From positions 30,957 to 94,956 of the forward strand of contig JAIRPN010000014.1 of assembly GCA_031256975.1 (NCBI GenBank): a stretch of 64,000 nt of DNA. Direction: 5' to 3'. This document shows positions 7,524 to 64,000 of the stretch, one piece after another (positions within the stretch are counted from its first letter, which is position 1; the number at the start of each line of letters is the position of its first letter). Source of the DNA: Verrucomicrobiales bacterium (GTDB lineage: Bacteria > Verrucomicrobiota > Verrucomicrobiia > Methylacidiphilales > JAAUTS01). Under the pieces are notes generated by a model. The model saw only the letters and a list, made by a program, of their open reading frames with translations. It had not been told where the DNA came from and ran no database searches. A program made the translations under genes and the position numbers.

Positions 7524-7952
7524 ATGAAAAAAATTATTTTTAGCCTCGCAGTTGTAATTTCATCATTAGCCGGTGTCGATGTGTTCGCGGCAAGCCAGTT
7601 GAAAACCGAAGCGGTAAACAACCGGGTATCCGGCATTGTGGTGAAACAGGAAAAGGAAAACGGCCAGACTGTCATTAGCGGGTCCGTTCTTCGTGGCAAG
7701 CCCGCATCGCTGACGCCGGGCGCACATATCCATGTTCAACTGGTGGATGCGCAGAATCGGCTGCTTGCTTGCAAGTCGCAGGGTCTGGCTCCCACGGCGC
7801 CCAGGCGTGATGTTTCGCTCGGTTATCGTTCTTCCTATGCGGTGACATTATCGTCCGCCGAGGCGGCCAGGGCGGACAAGGTGCGTGTGGAATACATTGC
7901 CAATTCACACGATGAATGCACCAGTGTCTGCAGCAAGAAAAACCGTTCATAA
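7524..7952 (+). CDS. Hypothetical secreted protein
   Basis: The ATG at 7524 gives a classic signal peptide, MKKIIFSLAVVISSLAGVDVFA. About 142 aa, no recognised domain. Confidence 0.45.
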   Translation: MKKIIFSLAVVISSLAGVDVFAASQLKTEAVNNRVSGIVVKQEKENGQTVISGSVLRGKPASLTPGAHIHVQLVDAQNRLLACKSQGLAPTAPRRDVSLGYRSSYAVTLSSAEAARADKVRVEYIANSHDECTSVCSKKNRS

Positions 7953-7975
7953 CAATCGATCAGACCAAAACTTCT

Positions 7976-9277
7976 ATGAGTCGTTATACGCTCTGGAAGA
8001 TTGTGTGCTTGGGGATCGCGCTGGTTAGCGCCTCGACGGCCCGTGTCGTCGGGGCGGGTGCGCCGTCCTTCACCGCCACAATTGACCAGCTGATCCGATT
8101 GGGGCTCAGGCAAAATGCCGAGCTTGGGATGTATGAAGCCGAGCTGGCTGCTGCCAAGGGCGAACGCATGCAATCCGGGCTGTGGAAAAATCCGGAGTTT
8201 TCCGCGGAATATGGTTCCCGCCGTGTCTCGGATAATGGGGGAAATTTGCAGGGCGACGGCTACACGCGCAGCTTTGCCGTGATGCAATCCTTTGAGTTTC
8301 CGGGCAAAGGATCCTTGCGCAAGGCAATTGCCGACAAAAACATCGAGTTGGCCGAGCTGGGTTTGCAACAATTTAGGCAGGCCCTGGGAAGGAAAATTCG
8401 CGGCCTCGCATTGAAGTATGTTGCGGCTACAGCCCATGCGGATGCGACCGCTGAGATAAGCGGGCGTTGTGCCGCACTGGTGAAGTTACTGCGTGAACGC
8501 CCGTTGGCCGGTGTGCCCCAATTGCTGGAATTACGGGTGATCGAGGGCAGTTTATCGGAACTGCAGCAATCGGCGAAAGAATTCACGCAAGTCCGGGAAG
8601 AAACGCGGTTGGAATTGAACGCCTTGTTAGGGCTGCCGGCGAGCCAGCCGCTAACCGTGAACGAGGAGTTGGCGCCGCCGCCTGCCGCCGGCATGAGCCT
8701 CGACGCGCTAATCATGAACGGACTTTCCGGCAATCTGCAACTCAAGATGCGCAAGGTGGAAGTGGAAAAAACGGCCAAGCAAGTGTCCGCCGCCAAGCTT
8801 GATATTGCGCCGGATTTCTCGGTTGGGCCCTTTTTCAGCCAGGACAAGGCGGGTGATCTGGAGGAGAATTTTGGCGCCGCAATTTCCGTGACCTTGCCGT
8901 TGTGGAATTGGAACCAAGGAAATATCGGAGTGGCCGAGGCGCGAAGGCAACAGGCAGATATCCTGTTGCACGACGCAAGGCGCAAGGTGGAGGCGGAGAT
9001 TGCGCGCTGTTATCGCGCTTATGAGTTAAACCGGAAACAATTTGCGCAGATGCCGCGACTTGCCGTTGGGGAATTGCGGGAGGCGGCAGATTTGGCTGAT
9101 CGCCAGTACCGCACGGGCGCCATTAGCGTGCAGTTGTTTCTGGATGTGCAACGCCAATTTCTGAGTGTCCAGCAGATCAGGAACAATGTTGTGCTGGAAA
9201 TGTGGAACAACCGGCTGGATCTGGAATTGCTGACAGGATGCCAATTCCCCGACGCCAACCCGGAGGCTGCAAAATGA
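7976..9277 (+). CDS. TolC-family outer-membrane protein (CzcC-like) of the heavy-metal RND system
   Basis: Start re-set to the ATG at 7976 (MSRYTLWKIVCLGIALVSAS). OMF repeat architecture. Its stop overlaps the next start (ATGA at 9274). Confidence 0.8.
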   Translation: MSRYTLWKIVCLGIALVSASTARVVGAGAPSFTATIDQLIRLGLRQNAELGMYEAELAAAKGERMQSGLWKNPEFSAEYGSRRVSDNGGNLQGDGYTRSFAVMQSFEFPGKGSLRKAIADKNIELAELGLQQFRQALGRKIRGLALKYVAATAHADATAEISGRCAALVKLLRERPLAGVPQLLELRVIEGSLSELQQSAKEFTQVREETRLELNALLGLPASQPLTVNEELAPPPAAGMSLDALIMNGLSGNLQLKMRKVEVEKTAKQVSAAKLDIAPDFSVGPFFSQDKAGDLEENFGAAISVTLPLWNWNQGNIGVAEARRQQADILLHDARRKVEAEIARCYRAYELNRKQFAQMPRLAVGELREAADLADRQYRTGAISVQLFLDVQRQFLSVQQIRNNVVLEMWNNRLDLELLTGCQFPDANPEAAK

Positions 9278-10083
9278 GACGGCTATTGATAGGGGGAATA
9301 GTGCTTCCGGTGCTGTTGTTCCCGGGGCTTGTTGCGTGTGATTCGAAACATGACGCTAATGACGGACATGATCATGCCGCAGAGATGACCAACGATCAGG
9401 CTAACGACGAGCATGGCGACGAATTTTCCGGTGCAAACTTCGAAGAGGGAAAAGGCATCCGCATGTCGGATGAGGCATGGAAATCCCTGGGTTTGCAGCA
9501 GCTCGCGGTTAGCGAACAGCCGGCGGCATTTAACATCACGATCAGCGCCCAGGTTTACCGTTCGGTGGCGGAGTCATCCGATGCTCAGGATGGGCAACAA
9601 AGCCGCGCTTTTGCCACGGCGTTGGTTTCACCCGAGCAAGCGGCGCGTATTCGCGTCGGACAGTCGGTACATTACAGCGCTAATGGTGATGAGGCGAATG
9701 AACGGCTTGGAACACTGTGGAAAATCGAAAGGACCCAGATGTCCTTGCTGGGCAAGGCCGAATTGTTGTTAGTACTGCCGGACGCCAATCACGAATTGGG
9801 AGTTGGTGATTTTATAAGCCTGAAGATTCCGGTGGAAAATTCCAATAAAAGCGTCATTAGCATTCCAAAGTCGGCGCTTCTGGAGACCTCCCAAGGTTAT
9901 TACGTTTTCACGGTTAGCGGAGAATTTTTACAGCGCCGCGAGGTCAAGGTTGGTTCGCAAAATGACGATTTCGTTGAAATTGTCGACGGACTGAAGTCTG
10001 GAGACAGCATCGTGGTCAAACCGGTGGACATTTTGTATCTCATCGAACTTAAAGCCACCAAAGGTGGCGGACACGGACACTAA
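9274..10083 (+). CDS. CzcB-like periplasmic adaptor, short form with His-rich termini
   Basis: The ATG at 9274 gives lipoprotein-like MRRLLIGGIVLPVLLFPGLVACDS. N-terminus has a His/Asp-rich stretch (HDANDGHDHAAEMTNDQANDEHGDE) and the C-terminus ends GGGHGH. The beta-barrel/membrane-proximal region is typical of MFPs (GDFISLKIPVE...IPKSALLETSQGYYVF). Confidence 0.75.
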   Translation: MRRLLIGGIVLPVLLFPGLVACDSKHDANDGHDHAAEMTNDQANDEHGDEFSGANFEEGKGIRMSDEAWKSLGLQQLAVSEQPAAFNITISAQVYRSVAESSDAQDGQQSRAFATALVSPEQAARIRVGQSVHYSANGDEANERLGTLWKIERTQMSLLGKAELLLVLPDANHELGVGDFISLKIPVENSNKSVISIPKSALLETSQGYYVFTVSGEFLQRREVKVGSQNDDFVEIVDGLKSGDSIVVKPVDILYLIELKATKGGGHGH

Positions 10084-15676: not shown

Positions 15677-16504
15677 ATGTTTTTAGCATCCGTCAGTCCC
15701 ACAGCAGAGGTTGTAGGTCCCTATTCGTGGGTTACGAATTCGATGGTTAGCTCCGTGATCGTCGTCGTGGCGATTATATTATTCGTTCGCTTGGCAACAC
15801 GCCGCGCTTCGTTGGTGCCCTCCGGTGCGCAAAATTTTCTCGAATGGGTGGTTGAATCGCTGTTTAATCTGGTCGAATCGGTGGTGGGTAAAGGACTGGT
15901 GCGGAAAACCATGCCGCTGCTCGCCTCGTACTTCATTTTTATTCTGGTGGCCAACTGGACCGGTTTGTTGCCGGGTGTCGGCACGGTTGGTTTTTTGCAT
16001 GAGGAGGGTGGCAAGACGGAATTCGTGCCGCTGTTGCGCGGAGCCAATGCCGACCTGAACATGACCTTGGCGTTGGCCTCCTCGTTCATGCTGGTCTGGC
16101 TGGTCTGGACCTTGCGTGAGGTTGGTCTGGTTGGTTTCCTCAAACACACCTTTGGCCCGAAAAGCCTGATGGAAACGCTGGGTTCCAGCGGCATTGCCAA
16201 GGCCGCGATCATCGGCATGAACGTGTTCCTGTGCGTGATTTTCTTTGGCGTTGGCATCGTCGAGTTGATTTCCATTGCCTCGCGATTGCTGTCGCTGCCG
16301 ATCCGACTTTACGGCAATATTTACGCGGGTGAAAACCTGATTGAGTCCCTGATGAACATGTTTGGCCCGTGGTGGGGGATTTTTGTTTGTATCCCAGCCT
16401 ACGTGATGGAACTGATGGTCGGTTTCATCCAAGCCTTCGTGTTCCTGTTGTTGTGCTCGGTGTATACCCAGCTGTCCGCCACGAACGAGGAGGAAGGGCA
16501 TTAG
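15677..16504 (+). CDS. atpB: F0F1 ATP synthase subunit a
   Basis: 275 aa polytopic protein with the conserved LSLPIRLYGNIYAGE motif. First gene of the atp operon, after a roughly 180-bp AT-rich spacer. Confidence 0.9.
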   Translation: MFLASVSPTAEVVGPYSWVTNSMVSSVIVVVAIILFVRLATRRASLVPSGAQNFLEWVVESLFNLVESVVGKGLVRKTMPLLASYFIFILVANWTGLLPGVGTVGFLHEEGGKTEFVPLLRGANADLNMTLALASSFMLVWLVWTLREVGLVGFLKHTFGPKSLMETLGSSGIAKAAIIGMNVFLCVIFFGVGIVELISIASRLLSLPIRLYGNIYAGENLIESLMNMFGPWWGIFVCIPAYVMELMVGFIQAFVFLLLCSVYTQLSATNEEEGH

Positions 16505-16569
16505 AATTTTGCCGGCGGGACCATCCGTGAGAGTGGGCGTCGGCAAGCAAATAAAACGAAAGAAAAACT

Positions 16570-16797
16570 ATGATGATCGCAGAAGTCAGTGAAACTATCC
16601 AGGGTCTCGGCAGCATTAGCGTCGGCGGCGCGGCACTCGGTGCGGCGCTTGGCGTGGGTGTGATCGGTGCGAAGGCGGTGGAAGCCGTCGGCCGCAATCC
16701 CGGCACCTTCCCGAAAGTGCTGACCATGGCCTTGCTGAGCATGGCCTTGGCCGAAGCTATCGTGTTCTACGCCTTGTTCATCAAGGGCGCGGCCTAA
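16570..16797 (+). CDS. atpE: F0F1 ATP synthase subunit c
   Basis: 75-aa hairpin proteolipid with a GxGxGxG helix, an RNP loop and a carboxylate-bearing second helix (LAEAI). Confidence 0.9.
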   Translation: MMIAEVSETIQGLGSISVGGAALGAALGVGVIGAKAVEAVGRNPGTFPKVLTMALLSMALAEAIVFYALFIKGAA

Positions 16798-16840
16798 TTA
16801 TCTAAACCCCGCGGGGGAGGGTTAAATCCCCCGACATTTT

Positions 16841-17407
16841 ATGGTTGAATCCCTATTCACTACAGTGGCACAGAACGCGTTCCTCGCGGAGGGCGCGGCG
16901 GATGGTTTTGTCAAGGTGATCAATGATCTCGGCATCGAATGGCCGGCGCTGATCGCGCAGCTGGTCATTTTCATCATCCTGTTCCTGGCCTTGAAAAAAT
17001 ACGCCTACCAGCCGATCCTGAAGGTGCTGGACGAGCGCAAGCAGCGCATCGAGGAAAGCATGGCGAATGTCGAGAAGATCAAGAGTGACCTCGCCGAGAC
17101 GGAAAAAACCCGCCAGGAAATCATTGCCAAGGCCAACACGACGGCCAATGAATTGATTGCCAAGGCCAAGGCGGATGCCGAGGCGTTAAACGCCAAGAAA
17201 ATCCAGGAGACCGTCCATCAGGTCGAGTCGATGCTGCGCAAGGCCGAGGAGGCCGCGGCGCAGGAGCGCGAGAAACTGGCCAATGAATTGCGCCAGGAAA
17301 TGGGCAAGCTGGTGGTGTTGACCACCTCGAAGGTGATTGGCCGCACGCTGACGCCGGAAGACCAGGCGCGCCTGCAAAAGGAAGCGCTGGACGCATTGAA
17401 AAATTAA
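16841..17407 (+). CDS. atpF: F0F1 ATP synthase subunit b
   Basis: 188 aa. Single N-terminal TM followed by a long charged coiled coil (E/K/A rich), in the expected operon position. Confidence 0.85.
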   Translation: MVESLFTTVAQNAFLAEGAADGFVKVINDLGIEWPALIAQLVIFIILFLALKKYAYQPILKVLDERKQRIEESMANVEKIKSDLAETEKTRQEIIAKANTTANELIAKAKADAEALNAKKIQETVHQVESMLRKAEEAAAQEREKLANELRQEMGKLVVLTTSKVIGRTLTPEDQARLQKEALDALKN

Positions 17408-17417
17408 TCCGAACGTC

Positions 17418-17807
17418 ATGAGAATCACCCGCGAAGCCCGCACCATCGCCAAGCGCCTGTTCCTGCTGTGCCGCAAGGACGGCAGGCTCGACGAGTCCGC
17501 ATTGCGCCTGGTGGTCAATGAGATTGCGGCGAAAAAGCCGCGCAACTACGCGGCGATTTTGTCGCGCCTGGCCCGCTTGGTGGAGATTGATTTGAACGAG
17601 CGGACCGCCGTGGTGGGAACCGCCGCCGCGCTGGCGGACAACGGCAAACAAATTCTGGCGGCGTTGAATGCCGAGTTTCCCAACCTTGCGGCAAGCAGGG
17701 TGGAAGTGAAGCCGGAATTGATCGGCGGATTGAAGGTGCGCGTCGGCAGCCGGGTCTGGGACACCAGCATTAGCGGACGCTTGGCGGAATTGCAGAAAAG
17801 TTTTTAA
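17418..17807 (+). CDS. atpH: F0F1 ATP synthase subunit delta (short form, 129 aa)
   Basis: Operon position plus the conserved OSCP C-terminus, PELIGGLKVRVGSRVWDTSISGRLAELQ. Confidence 0.75.
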   Translation: MRITREARTIAKRLFLLCRKDGRLDESALRLVVNEIAAKKPRNYAAILSRLARLVEIDLNERTAVVGTAAALADNGKQILAALNAEFPNLAASRVEVKPELIGGLKVRVGSRVWDTSISGRLAELQKSF

Positions 17808-17828
17808 CCGAAGGACAAGTATTAGCGT

Positions 17829-19364
17829 ATGAGCACACTATTGGAAGATATCGAATCGCAGATCAAGGGTTTCAAGGGAAGCGACAAGCAGACTAACGTC
17901 GGCCGCGTTCGTGAAATCATGGACGGCGTGGTGAAGATTGAAGGCCTCACCGACGTGGCCTACCAGGAAACCGTCACCTTCGCCAACGGCGCGGTCGGTC
18001 TGGTGTTGAACCTCGAGGATACCGAAGTCGGCGCGATCGTGCTGGGTGATTTCCTTGGCATTAAGGAAGGCGACGAAGTGCGCGCCAGCGGCCACCAGAT
18101 CCGTGTTCCGGTGGGCAAGGCCTTGCTCGGCCGCGTGGTCGATGCGCTTGGCAATCCGATTGACGACAAGGGACCGATCAAGAGCGAGGAATTCAACCCG
18201 GTGGAAAAAATCGCCCCCGGCATCATCAAACGCCGTCCCGTGAACCAGCCCTTGCAGACCGGTATTCTGCCGATCGACACGATGATCCCGATTGGCCGCG
18301 GCCAGCGTGAATTGATCATCGGCGACCGTGCCACCGGCAAAACCACCGTGGCGATCGACACCATCATCAACCAGGCCAAGATCAATCGCCAGGGTGAGAA
18401 GAGCGGTGACAAGAATTTCCGCCCGTTGTATTCGATTTACGTGGCGATCGGCCAGAAGCGCGCCAACCTCGCGCGCGTGATCAACACGCTGACCGAGAAC
18501 GACGCGATGGCTTACACCGTGATCGTGGCCGCGACCGCTTCGGATTCGGCCACCAGCCAATACATCGCTCCGTTTGCCGGCGCCGCGATTGGCGAGTGGT
18601 TCATGCAGCACAACATGGACGCGCTGATTGTGTTTGACGATTTGTCCAAGCATGCCGCCGCTTATCGTCAGATTTCGCTGGTGCTGAAGCGCCCGTCCGG
18701 CCGTGAAGCATATCCGGGTGATGTGTTCTATCTGCATTCCCGTTTGCTGGAACGTTCCGCGCGTCTTAGCGAGGAAGCGGGCGGTGGTTCGCTGACCGCG
18801 CTGCCGATCATTGAAACCCAGGCCGGCGACGTTTCCGCTTACATTCCGACCAACGTCATTTCCATCACCGATGGTCAGATATTTTTGGAAGCCGACTTGT
18901 TCTATCAAGGCGTGCGTCCCGCGATCAACGTCGGCATTAGCGTTTCGCGTGTCGGTTCCGCCGCGCAGATCAAGGCGATCAAGCAGGTTGCCGGCAAGGT
19001 GAAACTCGAACTGGCGCAGTTCCGGGAACTGGCCGCATTCTCGCAGTTTGCCTCCGATCTCGATGCCGCCACCAAGGCCAAGCTCGACCGTGGCGCACGT
19101 ATCGTGGAAGTGTTCAAGCAACCGCAATACCAGCCCGTGCCGATTGAAATGCAGATCGTGATCATGTGGGCCACCCAGAACGGTTATTTTGACGACGTGG
19201 CGGTGGACAAGGTCTTGGACACCAAGGCCAAACTGGTGGACTACATGAACACCCGCGAGGAAGCTTTGCTGAAGGAAATCATCGAGAAGAAGGCATTGGA
19301 CGACGCCTTGCAAGACAAGGTCAAGAACGTCGTCACCGCGTTCAAACAATCGATCAACCACTAA
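17829..19364 (+). CDS. atpA: F0F1 ATP synthase subunit alpha
   Basis: 511 aa with Walker A GDRATGKT and high overall conservation. Confidence 0.95.
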
Positions 19365-19379
19365 CGCTAACCACGAGCC

Positions 19380-20303: not shown

Positions 20304-21740
<1,437 letters not shown>

Positions 21741-21767
21741 GCCGTCAACCGTAGGACAACGCCAACC

Positions 21768-22175
21768 ATGAAACTGCAATTGGAAATCGTGACTCCCGAG
21801 AAGAAAGCTTTTTCGGGAGAAGTGGACAGCGTGGTGGTTCCCACCGTGGAGGGTGACCTGGGTATTTTGCCCGGTCACACGCCGGTGATGACCCTGCTGC
21901 AACCGGGACATTTGCAGGTGATCAACGGCGAGAAAAAGGATTATCTGGCCATCGGCAGCGGTTTTGCCGAGATCGCCGCCCACAAGGTGGTGGTGTTGAC
22001 CGATGCCGCGCTTAGCGAGGACCAGATCGACGAGGTTTCGGTCGAGGCTGCCATTGAACGGGCGCAAAAAGCCCTGCAGGAAAAAGTGTCTCCCGAGGAA
22101 GAGGCGGCGCTGAAGGCGGGCATCCAGAAGTCACTGGCCCAGCTGCATCTCAAACGGCGCAAGCATCAGCCTTAA
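21768..22175 (+). CDS. atpC: F0F1 ATP synthase subunit epsilon
   Basis: 135 aa, last gene of the operon. N-terminal beta-sandwich followed by a C-terminal helical hairpin. Confidence 0.85.
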   Translation: MKLQLEIVTPEKKAFSGEVDSVVVPTVEGDLGILPGHTPVMTLLQPGHLQVINGEKKDYLAIGSGFAEIAAHKVVVLTDAALSEDQIDEVSVEAAIERAQKALQEKVSPEEEAALKAGIQKSLAQLHLKRRKHQP

Positions 22176-42473: not shown

Positions 42474-44285
<1,812 letters not shown>

Positions 44286-50922: not shown

Positions 50923-50943
50923 TTCGCGAGCTTTGGTTCAAAA

Positions 50944-50969
50944 AGCGCCGCTAACTACGGCGCTTTTTT
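50944..50969 (+). terminator. Rho-independent terminator after the PEP-CTERM gene
   Basis: AGCGCCG (50944-50) pairs with CGGCGCT (50958-64) around loop CTAACTA, followed by a T-run to 50969. The stem/loop junction spells CGCTAAC, the window-wide motif. Confidence 0.7.
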
Positions 50970-55560: not shown

Positions 55561-56339
55561 GGGGTTTTGGCAGTGGTGTTTATTTTATCAATGGCGGCTT
55601 GAAATTCCTTGGGAATGACCTGCATGGAAGAAGGAGGCTGGAGATAGGTATAAGCGCGGGTTTCGCCGTCGAATGTTAACTCGACGGGATAACGGTTGGA
55701 AACTTGGATGTAAGCGGTGGCGTTCACCTTGTTTTCTTCTCCGCTAACCATGGCGGGGTCGAAGTGTTCGGGCAAGGTGATTTGTTCGAGATACAAGCGT
55801 TGGCTGAAGACGAGACAATCAGTACCCTGGTGTTTTTGAATGCCGACAAAATTGGATTTATTGATCCAGGTGAAGCCGGGAAAATTATTTTGCGTCAGGG
55901 TGTTGTCAATGCGGACGTTTAACTGGCTGATGCCGGGAATACGTTCAACACAGGCTTGTTCATTGGCCCATTGGTCAAGACGGTCGCCTTTGTCAAAGAT
56001 GCGTTCTTCATGCCGGATAGTACCGGTAATGGTGACGGTTGTTTGTACCGGGCGGGTCATATTGATCACCTTGAGATTTTTTTGGCGGTTGAGCATTTTG
56101 GCAAAAAGCGGATCTTTTGCCGCGAGTTCCGCATTTTTTTTGTCGATAGCGGCTTGCTGCTGTTGTTCCTGTGTGGCGGATTTGGCCGTGTAACGATAGT
56201 CGACCTGCCATTTGATGTTGGCGGGAAGCTGGTTGACGATCAGCGGGCCCTTCTCCAGGGCGGACAAATCCGGTTCGTTTTGCGCGCGGGAGGCGCTAAT
56301 GGCGAACAAGCAGCATGAAAATAGGATGATGGATTTCAT
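55557..56339 (-). CDS. Hypothetical secreted protein
   Basis: 260 aa with signal peptide MKSIILFSCCLFAISASRAQ. ATGA overlaps at both ends, to the giant cassette protein upstream and the FAD gene downstream. Confidence 0.5.
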   Translation of the reverse strand: MKSIILFSCCLFAISASRAQNEPDLSALEKGPLIVNQLPANIKWQVDYRYTAKSATQEQQQQAAIDKKNAELAAKDPLFAKMLNRQKNLKVINMTRPVQTTVTITGTIRHEERIFDKGDRLDQWANEQACVERIPGISQLNVRIDNTLTQNNFPGFTWINKSNFVGIQKHQGTDCLVFSQRLYLEQITLPEHFDPAMVSGEENKVNATAYIQVSNRYPVELTFDGETRAYTYLQPPSSMQVIPKEFQAAIDKINTTAKTP

Positions 56340-59300
56340 TCGTTGACGATTTCTAGTTGGCTATCAATTACTTTGCCCGTGTAACGGTCAATGGCCACGT
56401 GCAGCCAATAATGTTTTTCCCCTTCCACTGTAAATTTGCCCAGGTTGGTTTCTTCGGGAGCAAATCGTCCGCTTTGGGCGACCAGGTCGATCAGCAGGTT
56501 CCAAGTGCGGGCGGTCCCGCAATCTGCCAAGGCCCGGATGACGGATTCGCGCTGTCTGGTGATTAACGCCATTTCGGGTGTGTCTTGCCGGATGTTCTGG
56601 ATGGTGCCGGTGGTGGCGATGAAGCCCGCGAAATTGTTGTCGTAGTAGGCGGCGGGATTGTTAACGTCCGGCGTGGGAGGTGTGGAGCCGCTATTGATCC
56701 AGGAACCCACCAGGTCGGCGCGATTGGTGATGGTTCTTGTGTTGGTTGTGTAATCGACGTAGCTGTTGCCGATGGTTGCGGCGGCGGTACTGGAGATCAG
56801 CAGGGATGAGTTGGTTTCGTCGCGTTGCACGCCAGAGATGAGGGCGGCGATGACAGGAGATTGTCTGGTGTTGAGATCAAGTCTGCCGGCGACAAGAGCA
56901 TCACTGTTAGTGTTGTCGTTGATGCAAAAAACATCAAGGAGCGCAGAGTCGCCGCTTTCGGGAAAGGAGAAATTAATGTTTCCCCAGGGTGTGTCACGGA
57001 AGGCATAGCCGAGTTCGGCGACGGAGCGAAAGGGTCGGTTTAGAATCAACGGACGGCTGGCATTGTTGCCGGCGACCATGGGCAGGCCGATGGATTGGGT
57101 GTCACTGCCGCCATTGACAGGATCGGAGGCGTAGCCACCCATGGTGCGACGTACGATGCCATCAGGGTCCCGGTTAAAATGACGTTGCTCGGCGACGGAA
57201 TCCTGCGGATGTTTGCGTACGGTATTTTCCGCCCAATAACCGTGTTGAAACCCATAGTAGGCGTTATTGTCCACATAGGTGGTTTTATTGCCGACGATGC
57301 CGACATCGGTCCTGGTGTTCATATGCGTGGCAAAGGATCTGCCGGTATCCGGACGGGCACTGGCCCAGATTACCGGGTAATCGCTATTGTCGTAAGGGCT
57401 CAACATGTAATGCAGACATTCTCCCATATGGATGCCCCATCTGGAGGTGCGAGGGTCGGTTCGCATGCCACCGTACCAGTTGTTGGCATTTTTGAAAGGT
57501 TGCAACAGGCTGTCGGCGTTTTCCACGACAAAGTTGTTGCCGGTGTAAGGCATGTAGGGAGCCTCGTCATAGGTGACCCACGTGCCATTTTGCTGGTACT
57601 GCAAGTAAAGGCGTAATTCGCTATTGTTGCCGCTTTCCGTGGGGGCGAACTGCATAAGCCGGTTGGTGGGGTCGGAGGATTGCGGGTTGGACCATGGGAA
57701 CATTGCCATTAGCAGGCCGGTGATGTTTTTTCCGGACCCCTGGTAAGTGTAAGTATAGCCCGCCAGATTACTGCCAGCGGGTAAGCCGGGTTGCGCAAGC
57801 ATGGTGGGTTCGCGGAAATTGGTGCCGCTGACGCTAAAGGTGAGTTGTAATTCCGTCGGTGGATTCCCGGATTCTGATTTTTTGTAATAGTCCCCATCAC
57901 TTTCATAAGTCGGAGAGTTGAAGACAAAGTAAGTGGCGATGTCCGATTGAGTGGGGGCGATGTCGGTGGTGCTACCTTTATTAACCCCGTATTTGAGAGA
58001 TCCCATTTTGAACGGAATCGAAGAGGGGGCTTTTCCACCGGAAGTGATGTAGGGGTCCTTGGTGACGTAGATGCGGAAATTTTGCGGGGAATTGGTGACT
58101 GAGTTGGAGCTGGCCGGATCGTGGGGATTCCAGATTTCGGGGAACAGCAATAAAACGGCGGTGTTTGCACCGACATGGGCGTACCAGTTACGGGCGCGGT
58201 AGAGATAGGGCAGATCCTCGACGCCGCGAACTTCAATGGCACTGCCGTTGGGGTCGATCAGGCCGGTTTGAATGCGGGTCGGGAAATTGTCCGAATCGTA
58301 CTGGTCGATGATATTGGCGCCAATTTGCATGATTTGCAAATCAGTCACAGTGTCGCGCGCGTGCTGCATCCAGGAAACGGCACCGGTGGTTTGCCATCCA
58401 CCCCATTGGTCGTCGCACAGCGATTTGCCGATGCTGCCGGCATTAATGGCGGCTTTGAGCAGCTCGAAGAAATTGGGTTCACGGCTGCTAATTTCGGACA
58501 ATTTCATGATGCCGCCGTTTGTGGCTGTATCCCGATAAGTCCATAGGCCATTGCCGCTGGACTCGAGTCCGAAATATTTGCGGATGGAAGCGGTGTCGGA
58601 ACCGGCCAGCAGGCCGATGCGGGACAGGGGAAACCGTCTTTTGAGCAAAGGTTCACCTACTTGCGCGACAGTACCATCGGCTCGTGTGAAAGAAGCTGTT
58701 ACCCGCACGGAAAGCAAGGAGGGGTTTATGGCATCATCCAATCCCTTTGCGTCATTGCCGGTGCCGAAGCCGCTATTGGTACTGGCGTTATTTTGGATTT
58801 TTGGTCGATTGGGATTGGGGACGTAGGAAGGTTGGTCGGTATCACGGGTGAAGGTGGCGAGATATTGTAGGGGTTTGAGTTGGTAAGTGCCGCTGGTAAA
58901 GAATTTGATCAGCTGCTGGCGGCTGGTGAAAGGCTGGTCGGTGATGCTGTTGTAGGTCAGGGTGCCGGTTTGCAGAAAACCGGTGGTGTTGCTTTGAATG
59001 AAATCGTAATAGCGTTTGCCGTTGTCGGGAAATTTATAACCGCTGGTAAAATCGCCTGATGCTTGCGCAGAGGCGTAGTTGCGCCAACCGATCAGGTCGT
59101 CGATTTCACCATCGATCATGCCGATCGAGTGAAGGTCGGCGAAGGCTTCGTTGCCTTTGTTGGCGTAGCCCCAGACCGCGTTGGTGCCGGAGATGGCTTG
59201 TTTGGCATGCATGGAGGTTGGATAGCCGGCGACGTTGGCGTCGAGGAGTCCTCCTTCGTTGAAAATGGCGTAGGCGTAGCGACCAATGATCGGGCTGCGG

Positions 59301-59902
59301 GTGCTGGGATTGGCAATCGGGCCTGTGCCAGTGACATAGATCCAGTCGGGAGCGGTGAAACCGCAATTGGGATCGGGATTGGTGCCGACCTGGGTGGCAC
59401 TGTATGAAGAATCGCGCGGGATCAGGTAGTGCTTGTTCCAGCGGGAAGGGCTGACGTATTGTCCATTAAGTGCTGAAGTGGTGGAGCTGATACTGGAAGC
59501 GAGGTGCAGGGCTGCACTGTCACTGCCTGAGCTGATGCGAATAAGATTGGGAATCGGATCGGTGCCGCTGGATAATGGTGGATTGCCGAAGCGCCTCGGT
59601 ACGGCGTTGCTGCCGCTAATGGGGAAATAGGTGGTGAAGGTGCCGGAGGTTGAGGGCGATGTTGAACCATTGACAATTTCCTGTTGCAAGTCGCCAATCA
59701 CGACCTGCAAGGCGCTTTGGCCAAGTGTCGCCGACTTGAAATCATTGAAGCTGCTGTTGGCGAGGTTTTGATAGCTGCGGGTTTGCGAGAAGAAGGCCAA
59801 AACCAATACCGTGAGCAGGACGACAAATGCCAGCACGATGATCAAGGCTGCACCACGTTGTGGGTGACCGGCTAACGATGCTGTTGGAAAGTGTTTCCGC
59901 AT
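56336..59902 (-). CDS. Giant GspK-like minor pseudopilin-type protein (resembles 'Verru_Chthon cassette protein A')
   Basis: Start re-set to the ATG at 59902, 5 nt after the upstream stop, giving about 1188 aa. N-terminus is MRKHFPTASLAGHPQRGAALIIVLAFVVLLTVLVLAFF. This is the GspK-type hydrophobic segment (QRG-[AV]ALI.VL), lacking Glu+5. The rest of the protein has no recognised domain. Confidence 0.65.
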   Translation of the reverse strand: MRKHFPTASLAGHPQRGAALIIVLAFVVLLTVLVLAFFSQTRSYQNLANSSFNDFKSATLGQSALQVVIGDLQQEIVNGSTSPSTSGTFTTYFPISGSNAVPRRFGNPPLSSGTDPIPNLIRISSGSDSAALHLASSISSTTSALNGQYVSPSRWNKHYLIPRDSSYSATQVGTNPDPNCGFTAPDWIYVTGTGPIANPSTRSPIIGRYAYAIFNEGGLLDANVAGYPTSMHAKQAISGTNAVWGYANKGNEAFADLHSIGMIDGEIDDLIGWRNYASAQASGDFTSGYKFPDNGKRYYDFIQSNTTGFLQTGTLTYNSITDQPFTSRQQLIKFFTSGTYQLKPLQYLATFTRDTDQPSYVPNPNRPKIQNNASTNSGFGTGNDAKGLDDAINPSLLSVRVTASFTRADGTVAQVGEPLLKRRFPLSRIGLLAGSDTASIRKYFGLESSGNGLWTYRDTATNGGIMKLSEISSREPNFFELLKAAINAGSIGKSLCDDQWGGWQTTGAVSWMQHARDTVTDLQIMQIGANIIDQYDSDNFPTRIQTGLIDPNGSAIEVRGVEDLPYLYRARNWYAHVGANTAVLLLFPEIWNPHDPASSNSVTNSPQNFRIYVTKDPYITSGGKAPSSIPFKMGSLKYGVNKGSTTDIAPTQSDIATYFVFNSPTYESDGDYYKKSESGNPPTELQLTFSVSGTNFREPTMLAQPGLPAGSNLAGYTYTYQGSGKNITGLLMAMFPWSNPQSSDPTNRLMQFAPTESGNNSELRLYLQYQQNGTWVTYDEAPYMPYTGNNFVVENADSLLQPFKNANNWYGGMRTDPRTSRWGIHMGECLHYMLSPYDNSDYPVIWASARPDTGRSFATHMNTRTDVGIVGNKTTYVDNNAYYGFQHGYWAENTVRKHPQDSVAEQRHFNRDPDGIVRRTMGGYASDPVNGGSDTQSIGLPMVAGNNASRPLILNRPFRSVAELGYAFRDTPWGNINFSFPESGDSALLDVFCINDNTNSDALVAGRLDLNTRQSPVIAALISGVQRDETNSSLLISSTAAATIGNSYVDYTTNTRTITNRADLVGSWINSGSTPPTPDVNNPAAYYDNNFAGFIATTGTIQNIRQDTPEMALITRQRESVIRALADCGTARTWNLLIDLVAQSGRFAPEETNLGKFTVEGEKHYWLHVAIDRYTGKVIDSQLEIVNE

Positions 59903-59907
59903 AGGAT

Positions 59908-60813
59908 TTAGTTGGCGAAGGTTGAGAGGTAAAACAGGCGGCTGTAAATATACACGCCGCCTTTTTTCGGCGCGGGCAGGGAACTGGAATTGACCGTACT
60001 CTGCCAATTTTGTTCGAGTTGGCCCATGGTGGCGTTGGGTTGGAAGTCGCGCATTTGCGAGGCAAGGTTGACGGCTTCGTCAGTGGTCATGATGGTTGCG
60101 GATTTGCGGTCGAGCACGGCGATGGTCACGCCGATGGCGGTCACGTCTTTGAGGCCGTTGATGGTACCGGTGTCATCACCGTTGCTGTCGAACTGTGGAA
60201 TCCAGGGGGTGGCACTAAGGGTGCCGTTGCGCAGCAAATAGTCGTATTCAAAGCGGATGATATTGGGGGTGATGACTTCGTAATCGGAGTCTGTGGCTGT
60301 TGAACTGATTGCGGTTGGCCAGGCGGAACTGATGGTTAGAGGCAGGAAAATTGCCGGGGTTTGGCTGTTGGCGTTGCTCCAGGGAAGCGCCTTGCTCATG
60401 CGTTCAACGTAGGGACGCTGGTTGGTGCTGCCGGAATTGAGCCGGTAAGCGACAAGGGAGATCGAGTTTGAAGTGTTACCGCCGGAAGATGAATAACCCG
60501 GTACTTCGCAGTAGAAAGCCAGCTGATCGTTTTTGTTGGAGTCAGTGGAGGAGTAACCGTCGTTGCCCTTGAGATAATAGTCAACGTCGACACGTTTGAC
60601 GATACGGGAGAAATCAGCGGCCATGCGGGCGAATAGCAGGCGGGCGGTGTTGTCGGCGTCGAGGTGGGAGTTGCTCAGGTTGGTGACGCGGGTGGTGCTG
60701 TTGAATAACTGCGCGACCAAGGCGACGAGGATCAAGAGCACGGTCACCGCCACCAGAATTTCGGTGAGGGTGAAGCCTCTTGCGGTCGCTAATGATGATC
60801 TTGGTGCGGGCAT
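59908..60813 (-). CDS. Prepilin-type N-terminal cleavage/methylation domain protein (GspJ-like; cassette protein C-like)
   Basis: 301 aa. ARG|FTLTEILVAVTVLLILVALVAQLF, with Glu at +5. Confidence 0.75.
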   Translation of the reverse strand: MPAPRSSLATARGFTLTEILVAVTVLLILVALVAQLFNSTTRVTNLSNSHLDADNTARLLFARMAADFSRIVKRVDVDYYLKGNDGYSSTDSNKNDQLAFYCEVPGYSSSGGNTSNSISLVAYRLNSGSTNQRPYVERMSKALPWSNANSQTPAIFLPLTISSAWPTAISSTATDSDYEVITPNIIRFEYDYLLRNGTLSATPWIPQFDSNGDDTGTINGLKDVTAIGVTIAVLDRKSATIMTTDEAVNLASQMRDFQPNATMGQLEQNWQSTVNSSSLPAPKKGGVYIYSRLFYLSTFAN

Positions 60814-60828
60814 TGCGAGAGATGACGG

Positions 60829-61275
60829 TTAGTGCCGGTTGAGGGCGACAAAAGTTTCGACCGTCCCGCTGGGGGGCTGGGTTGGATTTTCCACGACCGG
60901 CCAAGTCACCTTCAGGCTGCAGTAGATCGACTGGCTGCCGCTGTATTGGCGAATGGCGATGGTACTCAGTTGATACAAGGCGCCGTTTTTTTGGGTGGTG
61001 CCGGTGTTGTCGAAATACAGAGTGGTGCTGCCAGACAGGTTGATCCGGTATTGGGAAGATTGGGAAACGGTGCCGGAAGTGGCGTATAGGTCTGCGGCGA
61101 CCGAACTGAGAATCGAAGTGGCCGCGGTTTGCTGGATGGAATTGCGGTTATTCGCCAAGCCGACCGGCAACAAGCCAAGCACCGCCACCAGACAAAAGGC
61201 CACCACGCCAAGGGCCAAAGTTACTTCCACCAGGGAAAACGCCCGTTGCCGCCGGTGTTGGGTTAAGCGGTTCAT
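60829..61275 (-). CDS. Prepilin-type N-terminal cleavage/methylation domain protein (GspI-like; cassette protein B-like)
   Basis: 148 aa. RQRA|FSLVEVTLALGVVAFCLVAVLGLL, with Glu at +5. ATGA overlap with the upstream gene. Confidence 0.7.
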   Translation of the reverse strand: MNRLTQHRRQRAFSLVEVTLALGVVAFCLVAVLGLLPVGLANNRNSIQQTAATSILSSVAADLYATSGTVSQSSQYRINLSGSTTLYFDNTGTTQKNGALYQLSTIAIRQYSGSQSIYCSLKVTWPVVENPTQPPSGTVETFVALNRH

Positions 61276-61991
61276 CGGCGATAGATTTCTACGTTTCCTC
61301 CTGCTCCGGTAAATTGGATGGCCGCGACATTTTTATTGTTGCTGTCGACCCGGCTGCCTTGGGTCGGGCACAAGCCGATTTCGCCGATGCGCGGCAAATC
61401 GGTCTCACCATTGATGCTGGCTTCGCCGTTGGGGCTGAAGCGGACGGTTTGGTTGAAAGTATATTGCAACATGTTGAGTGGATGCGGGGTTTGCGCGCTG
61501 GATTCGCTGTTGACACGGAATTTTGAACTCTCATCGCCAGTGTAAGGATCGTCCGGGCGACCGTCAAGGGAGGCGGGATTATTGCCGCCAGCCGGAGCGG
61601 CAAGATCGGCCAGGTGAACGTTGTCCAGGCGGAGTAATTTTTCAATTGCCACAATACGGTTGGAGGGAAGCGACGCGGTGGTTGACGAGTCGTCGAAAAT
61701 TTGTGTCCCGTCGATGGATGCGGCCATCGCAATCAACACACGCCCGCTGCCCGGCGTATTGGCGGAAGCGGTTGGCGAGGCGCTTTCCTCGTGGAAGCCG
61801 ACCCACACATAGGTGTTATGGGTCATCGCATAGGTGCGGGCACGTTGCAGGGCCGAGGCGATTTCATAGGCCGAATTGGTGATATTGCCTGCGGTTTGGA
61901 GACCGGACAGGGCAGGTACGATCAGGGCGGTCAATGCGGACATGACCGCGACGACCACCAGCAACTCTATCAAAGTAAACGCTTTTTTCAT
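61272..61991 (-). CDS. Prepilin-type N-terminal cleavage/methylation domain protein (GspH/FimT-like; cassette protein D-like)
   Basis: 239 aa. MKKA|FTLIELLVVVAVMSALTALIVPAL, followed by a GspH-like ...EIASALQRARTYAM helix. First gene of the cassette. Confidence 0.8.
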   Translation of the reverse strand: MKKAFTLIELLVVVAVMSALTALIVPALSGLQTAGNITNSAYEIASALQRARTYAMTHNTYVWVGFHEESASPTASANTPGSGRVLIAMAASIDGTQIFDDSSTTASLPSNRIVAIEKLLRLDNVHLADLAAPAGGNNPASLDGRPDDPYTGDESSKFRVNSESSAQTPHPLNMLQYTFNQTVRFSPNGEASINGETDLPRIGEIGLCPTQGSRVDSNNKNVAAIQFTGAGGNVEIYRR

Positions 61992-62292
61992 TGGATGCTC
62001 CTGCGCTTGCTAATTAATACAGCTTTTACATAGCGCTTTATATATATTTTGGCAAACAAAAACTTTTGCTTTGGTGGTAAAGTAAGTTTTGCATACTTTT
62101 GGCTTTTGGGATTCACCTAACCGCCATTTCTCTGAATGAAGCCGGTATAAAATGCAGCTGAAAAATTGTTCCAAAGGGTTAACCCTCCAGTGACTGGTTG
62201 CTTATCGAGGGGAGTAACTTGTACAGCTTTTAACCTGTCAATGGCTAAATTTTAGACTTGCAATTACTATAGCAAGAATATAGCTATCGAAG

Positions 62293-64000
62293 ATGCGCGC
62301 CCGCAATTTGTTGTCTGACGACTTATCCCTGCAGCAGCTTGAAGAGATTCTTTCGCGTCATCCCAAGCGTCCATTGTTGCCATCGTTGGGAGAGAATGAG
62401 TGGCGCCGTGCCGCTAATGACCGGAATGTACAATCCCTGATTGCCCCGTTGCGCGAGATGGCATTGGCGGAGTGTGATGTGCCAATGCCGGTGCTGACAG
62501 ACGAGCTTTACGCGCATTTCAAGCAAACCGGCATCCGTCTGAATTTTGAGCGGGAATATTTCGAGCGTCGCCGCCGTTTGGGGCGGGCGGCAATTTCATT
62601 GTTGCTTTGTGATAAACAGGACCCGCGTTATGACGCGCTGTTAGCGTCCGTGACGGCCAAATTGACGGATATTTTCGAGGAAGTGTCGTGGGCCCTGCCG
62701 GCACATGTGCATTGGCACGATGCCGATGTAAGCGGCAAGGAGCCGATGCAGATTGATTTGTTTTGCGCGGAAACGGCGAATTTGATGGCGGAGTGCCTGG
62801 ACTTGTTTGGCGGGGTGTTGCCATTGGCGCTGCGGCAGCGGATTCGCGACCGTCTGCACAAGATGGTGTTTGAGAATTATCTGGCGACGCCGTTTCATTG
62901 GAAAACAGTGACGCACAACTGGAATGCGGTCTGTCATCAAGGCGTAGTCGGTGCCGCATTGTCGCAAGTGGAGGACGCTTCGCTGTTAGCGTCAATGCTG
63001 CTCGAGGCGCGGAAAAATCTGCCGTATTTTCTACAGGGATTCACTGCGGACGGTGGCTGCACCGAGGGCGTGGGTTATTGGAGTTACGGTTTCGGGTGGT
63101 TCACACGGTTGAACGAGCAACTGGAGACGCGTACCGGCGGGGAATTGTCATTGTTCGCTAATAATGAACTGGTGAAAAAAATCGCCCGTTTTGGCCCGCG
63201 CATGGCCTTGTCGGGCAACAAGCTGGTGAATTTCTCCGACAATGGCGCGGAAGGCGGTATCAGTCCATCGTTGTTAGCGTACTTTGCCAAGGTATTGGAG
63301 GAGCCGCGTTATGCGGATCTGGCGGCGGAGAATTATCGTACCTTGCTAGCGCAGGGCATGGACAAAGGCGCGGAGCGTTGTGATGTATTTTTGCTGGGGC
63401 GTCTGGTGTTGTGTTTGCCGGCGGATCTGGACCGGACGCTAACGGCGAAGTCGGAGGAAGATTGTTATCTGGACAAGCTGGGCGTGCTGGTGGCGCGGGG
63501 AACGGACGCCAACGGCCATCGCTGGGATTTCGCGGCGAAGGCCGGGAACAACGACGAGCATCATAATCATAACGACTGTGGCAACTTCCTGCTGAATATT
63601 GACGGTCGCCGGGTGGTGATGGAGATTGGTGCGCCGGAGTATGTGCACGATTATTTCGGACCGAAGCGTTACGAATTTCTTGCGGCGCGCAGCCTGGGGC
63701 ACTCGCTGCCGGTGATCAATGGTTGCGAACAGTCGGCTGGCGCGGAATTCACTTCGCGGGTGACGCGTTGTGAATTCACGGATGACGGCGCCTGTTTCGG
63801 AGTGGATGCGACGGCGGCATATCCGCCAGCGGCGAAGTGCGAGCTGTTCAAGCGGAGTTATCGGTTGTTCAAGCGCGAGGGCAGGCTGGAAATCCGCGAT
63901 GAATTTGTTTTGCAGGAAGCGGGGCAATTGGAAGCTGCGCTGGTTTTGTCGCAGCCGGCCCGGTTGCAAGACCCGCATTGCGCGGTGGTGGATTTGGACG
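62293..64000 (+). CDS. Heparinase II/III-family (polysaccharide lyase-like) protein, 3'-truncated by the window edge
   Basis: Manual translation from the ATG at 62293 stays open to 64000 (569 codons): MRARNLLSDDLSLQQLEEILSRHP... Contains ...HNWNAVCHQGVVGAA..., GCTEGVGYWSYGF and EHHNHNDCGNFLL, which are typical heparinase II/III blocks. The ORF track omits it because it has no stop in the window. Confidence 0.75.
   Translation, partial: MRARNLLSDDLSLQQLEEILSRHPKRPLLPSLGENEWRRAANDRNVQSLIAPLREMALAECDVPMPVLTDELYAHFKQTGIRLNFEREYFERRRRLGRAAISLLLCDKQDPRYDALLASVTAKLTDIFEEVSWALPAHVHWHDADVSGKEPMQIDLFCAETANLMAECLDLFGGVLPLALRQRIRDRLHKMVFENYLATPFHWKTVTHNWNAVCHQGVVGAALSQVEDASLLASMLLEARKNLPYFLQGFTADGGCTEGVGYWSYGFGWFTRLNEQLETRTGGELSLFANNELVKKIARFGPRMALSGNKLVNFSDNGAEGGISPSLLAYFAKVLEEPRYADLAAENYRTLLAQGMDKGAERCDVFLLGRLVLCLPADLDRTLTAKSEEDCYLDKLGVLVARGTDANGHRWDFAAKAGNNDEHHNHNDCGNFLLNIDGRRVVMEIGAPEYVHDYFGPKRYEFLAARSLGHSLPVINGCEQSAGAEFTSRVTRCEFTDDGACFGVDATAAYPPAAKCELFKRSYRLFKREGRLEIRDEFVLQEAGQLEAALVLSQPARLQDPHCAVVDLD

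Follow-up and report, generated by a model that had tools for sequence, protein, structure and literature searches.

A lineage-specific 12-nt DNA word with a one-letter dialect in an uncultured Verrucomicrobiota bacterium and its close relatives

What process fills the genes of an uncultured Verrucomicrobiota bacterium with one short DNA word, in every stop-free frame and in both orientations? The question was addressed in a contiguous stretch of 64 kb (the window) and in related genomes. The core hexamer CGCTAA/TTAGCG was counted exactly on both strands, giving 60 CGCTAA (+) and 51 TTAGCG (-), or 111 copies between positions 691 and 63448, against expectations of 30.3 (base composition) and 26.0 (order-3 Markov model). 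No other 6-mer in the window ranked above CGCTAA (z = 16.7). A sequence-only reading of the same DNA had put the copies at about 110 (51 TTAGCG, 60 CGCTAA) and the composition expectation at 25 – 30; recomputation gave the exact total above and 26 – 30. Three longer strings were also recovered as often as claimed: CGCTGTTAGCG/CGCTAACAGCG eight times (4 + 4, at the positions claimed), CGCTAATGAC/GTCATTAGCG 11 times (8 + 3) and TTCGCGGTTAGCG three times. The range had been started too late, at 7671, and two more copies lie upstream, at 697 and 5578.

The claimed word, RTTAGCG/CGCTAAY, was over-represented, and the flanking Y after CGCTAA (R before TTAGCG) was present in 101 of the 111 copies, but the true motif is longer and asymmetric: a 12-mer, CGCTAAYNRYGA, with the hexamer as its core. 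Exact CGCTAAYNRYGA occurred 42 times in the window, and 114 times when up to one mismatch was allowed, compared with 6.29 ± 2.68 in dinucleotide shuffles. The tail YNRYGA stood 3' of 38% of CGCTAA copies in the window and of only 4% of CGCTGA copies. Single-mismatch variants of CGCTAAYNRYGA were themselves over-represented; CGCCAA followed by YNRYGA was found 14 times, against ~1 by our own estimate from base frequencies (e.g., CGCCAATGACGA at 23508 – 23519, +, a variant by one transition where the relative L095 has CGCTAATGACGA). The commonest one-off variants are transitions (positions 4 A/G, 3 T/C, 6 and 9 C/T), as is the dialect difference described below. The motif's positions are graded like those of a position weight matrix, four internal ones being degenerate, and sequence beyond the 12 nt is unrelated between copies. 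Copies averaged one per ~560 bp in the window; in relatives the core reached densities of up to 1 per 130 bp.

Protein motifs, codon-pair preference or context-dependent mutation could yield such an excess as a by-product, with nothing dedicated to recognising the word. Maximal-order Markov models lend this some support, giving an observed/expected ratio (O/E) near 1 for words of at least 7 bases (e.g., CGCTAAC, 56 versus 51.4), the outcome that the sequence-only reading had named as damaging to its motif. These values do not refute the excess, because the model is conditioned on motif-containing sub-words, and at the 5-6-mer level the excess persisted (CGCTA, 141 versus 75 expected; CGCTAA, 111 versus 84 even at order 4). 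Both orientations also often encode beta-strand-like peptides (L-T-V, V-T-V-S). Against such an origin, 94 core copies lay in coding sequence and 17 were intergenic, the word being over-represented between genes too, and every one of the four stop-free frames was used, in either gene orientation; different frames and both orientations had been claimed. The commonest frame, RTT-AGC-G (Val/Ile-Ser, 43 sites), was absent from the earlier account. That account had also held that the word forces rare Leu codons, which is so for CTA (27 of 70 CTA codons lie inside the motif) and hardly for TTA (8 of 112). When synonymous codons were shuffled within each gene of the window, a control that had been proposed with the motif, 94 copies were observed versus 25.9 (z ~10 per orientation); the corresponding figures were 57 versus 15 in L083, 33 versus 5 in L095 and 40 versus 15 in L097, and z ranged from ~10 to 22 over window and relatives. 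Copy number was uneven among genes (chi-square 83, 39 df) and unrelated to GC3.

Orientation bears on a second possibility, a polar chromosome signal of the Chi (RecBCD/AddAB) or KOPS (FtsK) type. Chi and KOPS octamers are likewise short, over-represented and asymmetric chromosomal words, but they are far sparser (the present word is 5 – 30 times denser than Chi) and strongly skewed to the leading strand, being co-oriented with replication. The + strand of the window was G-skewed in every 4-kb bin, and the motif showed no replication-strand bias on it (60:51 for the core, 26:16 for the 12-mer). The earlier argument against a polar signal therefore stands, and this balance within the window contradicts the Chi/KOPS reading, which we regard as highly improbable.

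The word is specific to one lineage. In 80 other Verrucomicrobiota species CGCTAA was rarer than expected (median O/E 0.33), and relatives with AtpD at least 91% identical carried either the same word (L082, L095) or, at the same positions, a dialect one letter away from CGCTAAYNRYGA, namely CGCTGACGGTGA (L083, L097). L082, 97% identical to the window in nucleotides, and L095 (AtpD 94%; 40 copies in 9.6 kb) use the TAA form. L083 has 62 CGCTGA in 8.2 kb and zero CGCTAA, L097 has 54 CGCTGA in 13.5 kb, and the TGA form was also found in L091 and weakly in L089; the dialects thus track the core phylogeny. Neither CGCTAA nor CGCTGA was over-represented in the next relative (AtpD 87%). CGCTAAYNRYGA is a lineage-specific, genome-saturating DNA word in this uncultured bacterium. 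To our knowledge, the only earlier examples of such behavior are the uptake sequences of Neisseria and of Haemophilus relatives (DUS, USS) and cyanobacterial HIP1, the analogues already named as closest by the sequence-only reading; phylogeny-congruent dialects at homologous positions strengthen that comparison. No description of the word was found in paper searches, in keeping with the earlier statement that none was known. The depletion in 80 related species, the outgroup and sister lineages that encode the same peptides without the word, and a one-base switch at many sites between sister lineages, which is not codon usage, join the shuffles, frames and intergenic copies in making a by-product origin very improbable.

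Positional homology was assessed in aligned segments. Of 15 window sites, nine fell where L083 (76% nucleotide identity) has CGCTGA, and persistence at homologous positions was 6 of 11 at 79%. All four copies in the FAA-hydrolase gene (24650 – 25182; 24656 -, 24827 +, 25091 +, 25177 -) have CGCTGA-dialect counterparts at identical positions in L083. The five copies claimed in thiD (25316 – 26050) were reproduced at 25316 (+), 25586 (+), 25702 (-), 25972 (-) and 26045 (+), and three of them (25316, 25586, 26045) align with CGCTGA in L083. In the MiaB-like gene, CGCTAATGGTGA (22292 – 22303, +) is the same word in L095 and CGCTGATGGTGA in L083. The window retains a TGA-dialect copy in atpD, CGCTGACCGTGA (20416 – 20427, +); the site reads CGCTAACCGTGA in L095 and CGCTGACGGTG in L083 and L097, and the outgroup lacks the motif there. 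CGCTGA is still present in the window at five L095 sites. Within the clade the preferred word has switched between CGCTGACGGTGA and CGCTAAYNRYGA, in one direction or the other, with pre-existing sites converted in place. It also turns over quickly between close relatives, as L095 has 29 sites of its own and shares 6 with the window. Between the window and L082, core positions differed by 2.9% and background by 2.8%, and therefore no purifying maintenance is visible at that time scale.

How sites arise was clearest in AtpD, whose peptide RSPSAVGY is invariant in six taxa. Part of it is encoded in L083 and L097 by TCA CCG TCA GCG, the exact reverse complement of CGCTGACGGTGA, and in other taxa by TCG/TCC CCG AGC GCG, a serine family switch from AGC to TCA. 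A second serine switch in atpD, TCC/TCA to AGC, gives GTT/GTC AGC G in L095, L083 and L097. Motifs in conserved AtpD were thus built by purely synonymous changes, including AGC/TCN serine switches in both directions, and site building involved multi-nucleotide changes (3 – 4 substitutions within 12 nt). Amino acids were overridden in L095 (PALT to PSLA). At the DNA level the word is enforced even where it runs counter to codon preference, and sometimes where it runs counter to the conservation of amino acids. That the constraint acts on DNA and not on protein, as claimed earlier, is strongly supported by the frames, orientations, intergenic excess, shuffles and synonymous creation of sites in AtpD.

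The same alignments speak against descent from a dispersed repeat or a miniature mobile element, for which the recurrence of 10-13-mers, and nothing further, could be cited. Conserved genes contain most of the copies, in frame, and these align to motif-free orthologues without insertions. REP/MITE-type repeats, which are intergenic, share extended similarity or structure and arise by insertion, were ruled out by these in-frame substitutions and by the unrelated flanks, and we give this origin almost no credence. Alignments and shuffles together contradict the two origins, dispersed repeat and protein motifs, that the sequence-only reading had set against its own proposal.

Whatever keeps the word abundant reads the sequence of DNA, double- or single-stranded, and not that of protein or RNA; there is good support for a drive that acts on DNA and whose specificity can switch. 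Selected sites for an abundant chromosomal DNA-binding protein (nucleoid-associated, condensin-loading or self-marking/defence-related), with DNA-reading residues that changed between the two sub-clades, would account for the matrix-like grading and for homologous-position persistence above neutral decay. The TGA form looks like two GSTGAC units in head-to-tail order (tandem half-site GCTGAC-GGTGAC), a layout typical of a dimeric binder. However, the several-fold differences in density from one close relative to another (copies per kb: 1.7, window; 4.1, L095; 7.6, L083) and the rapid turnover (29 versus 6) fit a drive better than a positional function. Copies are randomly oriented and not regularly spaced in the window, with long motif-free stretches, and a benefit that overrides AtpD residues at thousands of sites is hard to picture. 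We consider such sites unlikely.

HIP1 in cyanobacteria is hyper-abundant in all frames and both orientations and has lineage-specific variants. A comparable intracellular repair or gene-conversion drive, as proposed for HIP1 and for Dcm/Vsr, would rest on a methyltransferase, nicking or mismatch-processing enzyme that biases repair of near-matches towards the word, and a changed enzyme specificity would create a dialect. The present word is like HIP1 (GCGATCGC) in its extreme over-representation in all frames, in arising by point substitution and not insertion, and in its lineage-specific variants. The transitions among variants and dialects favor repair of this kind, as does the density spread, which suits a drive and not a fixed requirement. 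HIP1 is a perfect palindromic octamer, whereas the present word is asymmetric, with a different reverse complement. Published work also connects HIP1 with methyltransferase sites; among the genes of the 64 kb there was no DNA methyltransferase, Vsr or restriction gene, only an rRNA-methyltransferase-like gene (26893 – 27786). The predicted T-for-C donor words TGCTAA, CGTTAA and CACTAA were depleted (O/E 0.36, 0.40 and 0.44), but no more so than unrelated xxCTAA words. The multi-nucleotide building of sites is not readily made by a single-base patch-repair bias, and the influence of Vsr on E. coli word frequencies is small. This too we judge improbable. A broader form, for which we would allow a slightly better though still modest chance, is that the word is the footprint of an undescribed intracellular, sequence-programmed DNA drive and not an uptake signal: a repair, gene-conversion or editing system of ~12-nt asymmetric specificity would rewrite near-matches genome-wide, its specificity could switch by one base, and related versions might act elsewhere in Verrucomicrobiota (e.g., GCCTAACGA). 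The string GCCTAACGA was seen in the distant Verrucomicrobiota MAG of locus L081.

Of the mechanisms considered, the likeliest, at somewhat less than an even chance, is one like that of DNA uptake sequences. The word would be the preferred ligand of a surface DNA receptor that belongs to a transformation machine, and own-species fragments carrying the word would be taken up and recombined more often. A match-improving mutation could then spread by molecular drive until balanced by its protein-level cost, and a change of receptor specificity would re-tune all sites, creating a dialect. DUS are bound by the minor pilin ComP and enhance DNA uptake and transformation. We know of no report of natural transformation in Verrucomicrobiota. 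The search for a cognate minor pilin suggested earlier yielded, in the 64-kb window, only pilin-like genes (56336 – 61991), which form the common Verru_Chthon pseudopilin-like cassette A-D. No ComP-type receptor was found in the window, and no competence gene (comEC, comEA, dprA, pilQ), which counts against uptake.

The word resembles the DUS of Neisseriaceae (PMC3630211) in being an asymmetric 12-nt word at ~1 per 0.4 – 1 kb, placed in both orientations, free of replication-strand bias, in genes (permissive frames) and between them, with enriched one-mismatch variants and clade-specific dialects 1 – 2 bases apart that follow phylogeny. Unlike DUS, CGCTAAYNRYGA/CGCTGACGGTGA has no similarity to ATGCCGTCTGAA and no invariant CTG core (CTG is only incidental in the TGA dialect), its host belongs to a different phylum, and its density in some relatives is higher, the densest DUS standing at 1 per 405 bp (Frye et al., 2013; PMC3630211). 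The degenerate internal positions and the tandem half-site look of the TGA form also differ from DUS and USS; they were counted against uptake and would suit a dimeric DNA-binding protein. Background divergence of core positions from L082 and gene-to-gene copy heterogeneity were counted likewise. With the USS of Pasteurellaceae the word shares a short core with weaker flanking positions, a mostly coding location with frame preferences set by tolerated peptides, and two sub-clade variants (Hin and Apl types in USS), but its logo shows neither USS core (AAGTGCGGT or ACAAGCGGT) and the AT-rich flanking segments are absent. NTS/SRM are also repeated DNA signals, linked to modulation of transformation, but they are ~30-bp intergenic hairpins flanking the ssnA gene and recognised by Ssn nucleases (PMC11893778), whereas the word here is a 12-mer, mostly inside genes, with no obligatory structure; no GIY-YIG gene was seen in the 64-kb window.

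Intergenic hairpins and terminators had been claimed for the word and held in part. Inverted pairs of DUS are frequent at transcription terminators, and here an inverted pair forms a terminator-like hairpin in one clear case, the full 12-mers CGCTAATGGCGA ... TCACCATTAGCG at 42436 – 42463 (fold -23.6 kcal/mol, z -5.6), between a convergent response-regulator gene (41730 – 42428, +) and TPP-enzyme gene (42474 – 44381, -). Pairs within 60 nt were not in excess in the window (10 versus 11 by chance), and this lack of general pairing was counted against uptake. Two cases were weaker. The pair TTAGCG (23683)/CGCTAA (23700) at 23677 – 23711 (fold -17.5 kcal/mol, z -2.75) is conserved in L095; it lies partly in the 5' end of the MiaB-like gene as called (22251 – 23693, -) and reaches into the gap before the divergent gene at 23718. 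After the PEP-CTERM gene, a terminator-like hairpin (50940 – 50968, +; fold -15.8 kcal/mol, z -4.2) carries the motif in stem and loop (AAAAAGCGCCGCTAACTACGGCGCTTTTT). The CLC-channel gene holds seven motif copies, among them two direct ones 17 nt apart, CGCTAACAGCGA and CGCTAATGACCA (29289 – 29317, +).

The hexamer CGCTAA/TTAGCG was the top over-represented 6-mer of the window (G+C 55.0%), with 111 copies observed vs 30.3 expected from base composition and 26.0 expected under an order-3 Markov model (z 16.7). The counts of the sequence-only reading, which had flagged this excess, were reproduced (TTAGCG, 51; CGCTAA, 60), and the longer exact words that it had listed were all found where it had placed them. 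Extensions of CGCTAA headed all lists from 7 to 10 nt; CATTAGCG was observed 37 times vs 1.9 expected and ACGCTAAC 26 times vs 1.1. Ratios near 1 under a maximal-order Markov model, which that reading had named as grounds for dismissing the word, were obtained for words of at least 7 nt (CGCTAAC, 56 vs 51.4), but this is not a valid refutation because the model conditions on sub-words already holding the signal. Motif logos were anchored on the core only, and the logo of all 111 aligned copies read g-n-CGCTAA-Y-S-R-Y-G-A, with 0.3 – 0.7 bit per position over the six positions 3' of the core (12-mer, CGCTAAYGGCGA). PWM refinement without a fixed core was rejected after drifting to generic coding patterns (25 false matches per shuffle). 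Exact CGCTAAYNRYGA copies in the window numbered 42, and the 12-mer with up to 1 mismatch was counted 114 times vs 6.29 ± 2.68 in dinucleotide shuffles. The tail followed 38% of CGCTAA copies vs 4% of CGCTGA copies in the window, where tail-bearing one-transition variants were also in excess (CGCCAA, 14; GGCTAA, 4/11).

The word acts at the level of the DNA. Gene calls were verified against Pfam and NCBIfam and comprised efflux systems, thiD, a CLC channel, a two-component pair, a PEP-CTERM protein, the atp operon (15677-22175) and a Verru_Chthon cassette. Read on the coding strand, the core fell in frame xTT AGC Gxx (Val/Ile-Ser) at 43 sites, xCG CTA Axx (Leu) at 27, xxC GCT AAY (Ala-Asn) at 13, TTA GCG (Leu-Ala) at 8, CGC TAA (at stops) at 3 and the stop frame xxT TAG CGx at 0; 17 copies lay outside called genes. 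Within-gene synonymous-codon shuffles of the window gave 25.9 cores vs 94 observed and 1.3 12-mers vs 33 observed, and 27/70 CTA codons and 8/112 TTA codons lay within the word. A codon or protein by-product is contradicted by these shuffles and by occurrence in multiple frames, and mobile repeats were contradicted by our tests. Orientation was balanced relative to genes (43:51) and to strand (60:51), the latter on a uniformly G-rich strand, which contradicts a polar chromosome signal of the Chi/KOPS type. On the + strand, G very strongly and evenly exceeded C (19893 vs 15312; skew +0.05 to +0.21 in every 4-kb bin), independently of gene orientation. Copy number was over-dispersed among genes of the window (chi-square 83, 39 df), and motif density showed no correlation there with GC3, taken as a proxy for foreign genes. 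Several kb at a time were almost motif-free at 1-7500 (FUSC efflux genes), 29600-32400 (LysR/DUF6268/TetR) and 44500-48600 (malic enzyme/deacetylase/GntR).

A search with AtpG against GTDB species representatives matched Verrucomicrobiota only (best, 59% identity), so the source organism is a poorly sampled member of this phylum. CGCTAA was depleted in the 80 Verrucomicrobiota loci matched (median O/E 0.33 vs 3.7 in the window). Relatives were represented by fetched contigs (L-numbers) with ThiD and AtpD homologues. The same word was present in L082 (97.2% nt to the window; 19 in 8.8 kb) and in L095/L096 (AtpD 94%; 40 in 9.6 kb). L083/L084 (AtpD 91%, ThiD 80%) carried 0 CGCTAA and 62 CGCTGA in 8.2 kb, with consensus CGCTGACGGTGA; CGCTGA was likewise found 54 times in 13.5 kb of L097 (AtpD 91%) and 8 times in 2.0 kb of L091 (ThiD 77%), and L089 (ThiD 76%) had a weaker form of this TGA word. 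Neither word was in excess in L085/L098, which belong to one MAG (AtpD 87%, ThiD 68%), and L086-88 (ThiD 66%) had no over-represented word (CGCTAA, 1). L083 and L097 come from NCBI/JGI MAGs (3300042609 and 3300042612, respectively), L095 comes from ENA assembly ERZ28634469, and the motif-free sister is GCA_028713655.1. The excess in relatives was upheld by synonymous shuffles (observed vs shuffled, 57 vs 15 in L083, 33 vs 5 in L095 and 40 vs 15 in L097). Position 4 separates the dialects, with A in the TAA form and G in the TGA form; the TAA form also has Y at positions 6 and 9, where the TGA form has mostly C (position 6) and T (position 9). Of the six frames, two acquire a stop from TAA and one from TGA, and this extra stop frame may be part of the reason why the TAA form is less dense. 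A metagenome scan with the histidine kinase at 39915-41726 returned just three distant matches (25 – 28% identity).

In two motif-free relatives (L085, 10001-13123; L090, 430-2981), thiD is immediately followed by comEC (DUF4131 + Competence), and in L085 it also adjoins cinA and recA. Its neighbors differ in the motif-bearing clade, being an FAA hydrolase and an rRNA-methyltransferase-like gene, with a purine-nucleoside-phosphorylase-family gene as well in the TAA lineage. In L095 (3076-4522), atpA was called in two pieces (79 aa + 389 aa), perhaps because of a frameshift or faulty assembly.

Sites of the two dialects were positionally homologous and had been switched in place. In four orthologous segments shared with L083 (~76% nt identity), 9/15 window CGCTAA sites aligned exactly with CGCTGA. 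Comparison with L095 (~79%) gave 6 common, 5 window-only and 29 L095-only sites, the window retaining CGCTGA at five L095 sites; comparison with L082 gave 19 common, 4 window-only and 0 L082-only sites, the four alternatives in L082 being CGCTCA, CGCCAA (twice) and CGCTGA. The TGA dialect is probably ancestral, since it occurs in more lineages and relics are kept in the window, as at 20416-20427 (CGCTGACCGTGA). Motif construction was read from a six-taxon atpD alignment. The AtpD peptide RSPSAVGY is invariant in all six taxa and is encoded in L083 and L097 by TCA CCG TCA GCG, a perfect reverse complement of the TGA 12-mer, and in all other taxa by TCG/TCC CCG AGC GCG, so that the L083 and L097 site combines a serine family switch with a third-position change. 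At SEVSALLG the serine switch ran in the reverse direction (TCC/TCA to AGC in L095, L083 and L097), and in L095 an amino-acid change from PALT to PSLA yields CATTAGCGG. As read in this alignment, motifs were assembled by changes at several nucleotides, mostly synonymous, which shows that the pressure is exerted on the word as a whole; a mutational bias at single bases does not account for such changes.

The pattern shows that the word is driven or selected at the DNA level, that its sites turn over rapidly and that the target can switch. Of the processes known, a bias in the uptake and recombination of self DNA is tentatively the best fit to the whole of it, somewhat short of an even chance: as with the DUS of Neisseriaceae and the USS of Pasteurellaceae, self DNA would be taken up and recombined preferentially when the word is present. 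This reading is favored because the word resembles DUS/USS in density (the densest DUS occurs once per 405 bp; PMC3630211), balanced orientation, frame tolerance, enrichment of near-matches in the window, dialects congruent with phylogeny and, in a single clear case, an inverted pair that folds into a strong hairpin (-23.6 kcal/mol, z -5.6) where two genes converge. Against it count that no competence genes and only one good inverted pair were found in the 64 kb, and that the word has a degenerate, tandem-half-site look. This look is also compatible with a dimeric DNA-binding protein, and a selected site for such a protein is an unlikely but real alternative. The word is not a member of the DUS, USS or HIP1 families, because their sequence-defining features are absent, yet it behaves like them. 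A HIP1-like or Vsr-like repair drive is likewise an unlikely but real alternative; depletion of Vsr-type donor words was looked for and not seen. Scans of viral contigs for inverted pairs of either dialect gave matches at chance level, and no phage of the clade was found in them. In 9.5 kb of one viral contig (L099; IMGVR_UViG_3300045391_005416), the HIP1 core CGATCGC occurred 17 times, so a HIP1-type word can be dense in viral-classified DNA.

All fetched loci were scanned without bias for dispersed over-represented 7-mers. One further case was obtained, in an uncultured Verrucomicrobiae MAG (L081; CAVTRW010000015.1; AtpG 49% identical), with the word G[C/A]CTAACGA (GCCTAACGA) dispersed over the whole 20.9-kb locus. 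CTAACG occurred there 23 times in both orientations and four frames (20 observed vs 4.8 in synonymous shuffles). Because this core is common to the L081 word and the window's CGCTAACG, the phenomenon may be sporadically widespread in Verrucomicrobiota. Candidate words in L005 and L040 were rejected as gene-oriented codon-pair words and that in L102 as a tandem repeat. Extra words in L089 (7222-7339) and L097 (1-100) were 8-bp tandem repeats ending contigs, (AGACTCGC)n and (CCAAGCCG)n, respectively, which may be microsatellites breaking assemblies.

In full-text searches, no paper was found that deals with either word as a genomic motif or with uptake sequences in Verrucomicrobia; Ssn/NTS repeats, unlike the present word, are 30-bp intergenic hairpins. 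We rate the word as belonging among the hyper-abundant, lineage-specific iterated words. To our knowledge, self-recognizing uptake sequences are documented for two proteobacterial families only, and we know of no settled explanation for the origin of HIP1. The present word would add a third such case, independent of the others and from a distant uncultured phylum, distinguished by a dialect switch caught between relatives ~76 – 85% identical in DNA, by site-by-site positional homology of the dialects and by unambiguous synonymous motif construction including serine codon-family switches. If the word is an uptake sequence, natural transformation with self-preference is predicted in Verrucomicrobiota and the exact test oligonucleotides are supplied; otherwise, a sequence drive of a new kind, acting genome-wide, is indicated. 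The two words are lineage barcodes of use in binning and, within these MAGs, in recognizing DNA of horizontal origin; co-variation with them offers a route to the cognate receptor or enzyme.

Other features of the window were recorded. In the second RND efflux operon, the adaptor (MFP) gene (9202-10083; 4 motif copies within its 0.9 kb) matched TIGR01730 below cut-off and over the C-terminal half only, and its start is uncertain. The sole RNA gene found by Rfam and tRNA scans of the window was tRNA-Lys(CTT) (47197-47269, - strand). It overlaps the 3' end of the ORF called at 46347-47216 by 20 nt, so the end of this ORF, or its status as a gene, may be mis-called. Four genes at 56336-61991 (- strand), which contain few motif copies, matched the Verru_Chthon cassette proteins A, C, B and D (the A match, 1223 aa). 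Protein B alone scored above the NCBIfam cut-off, A, C and D matching via their N-termini; the products are predicted to be prepilin-type pseudopilins, and D weakly resembles ComGD/GspH.
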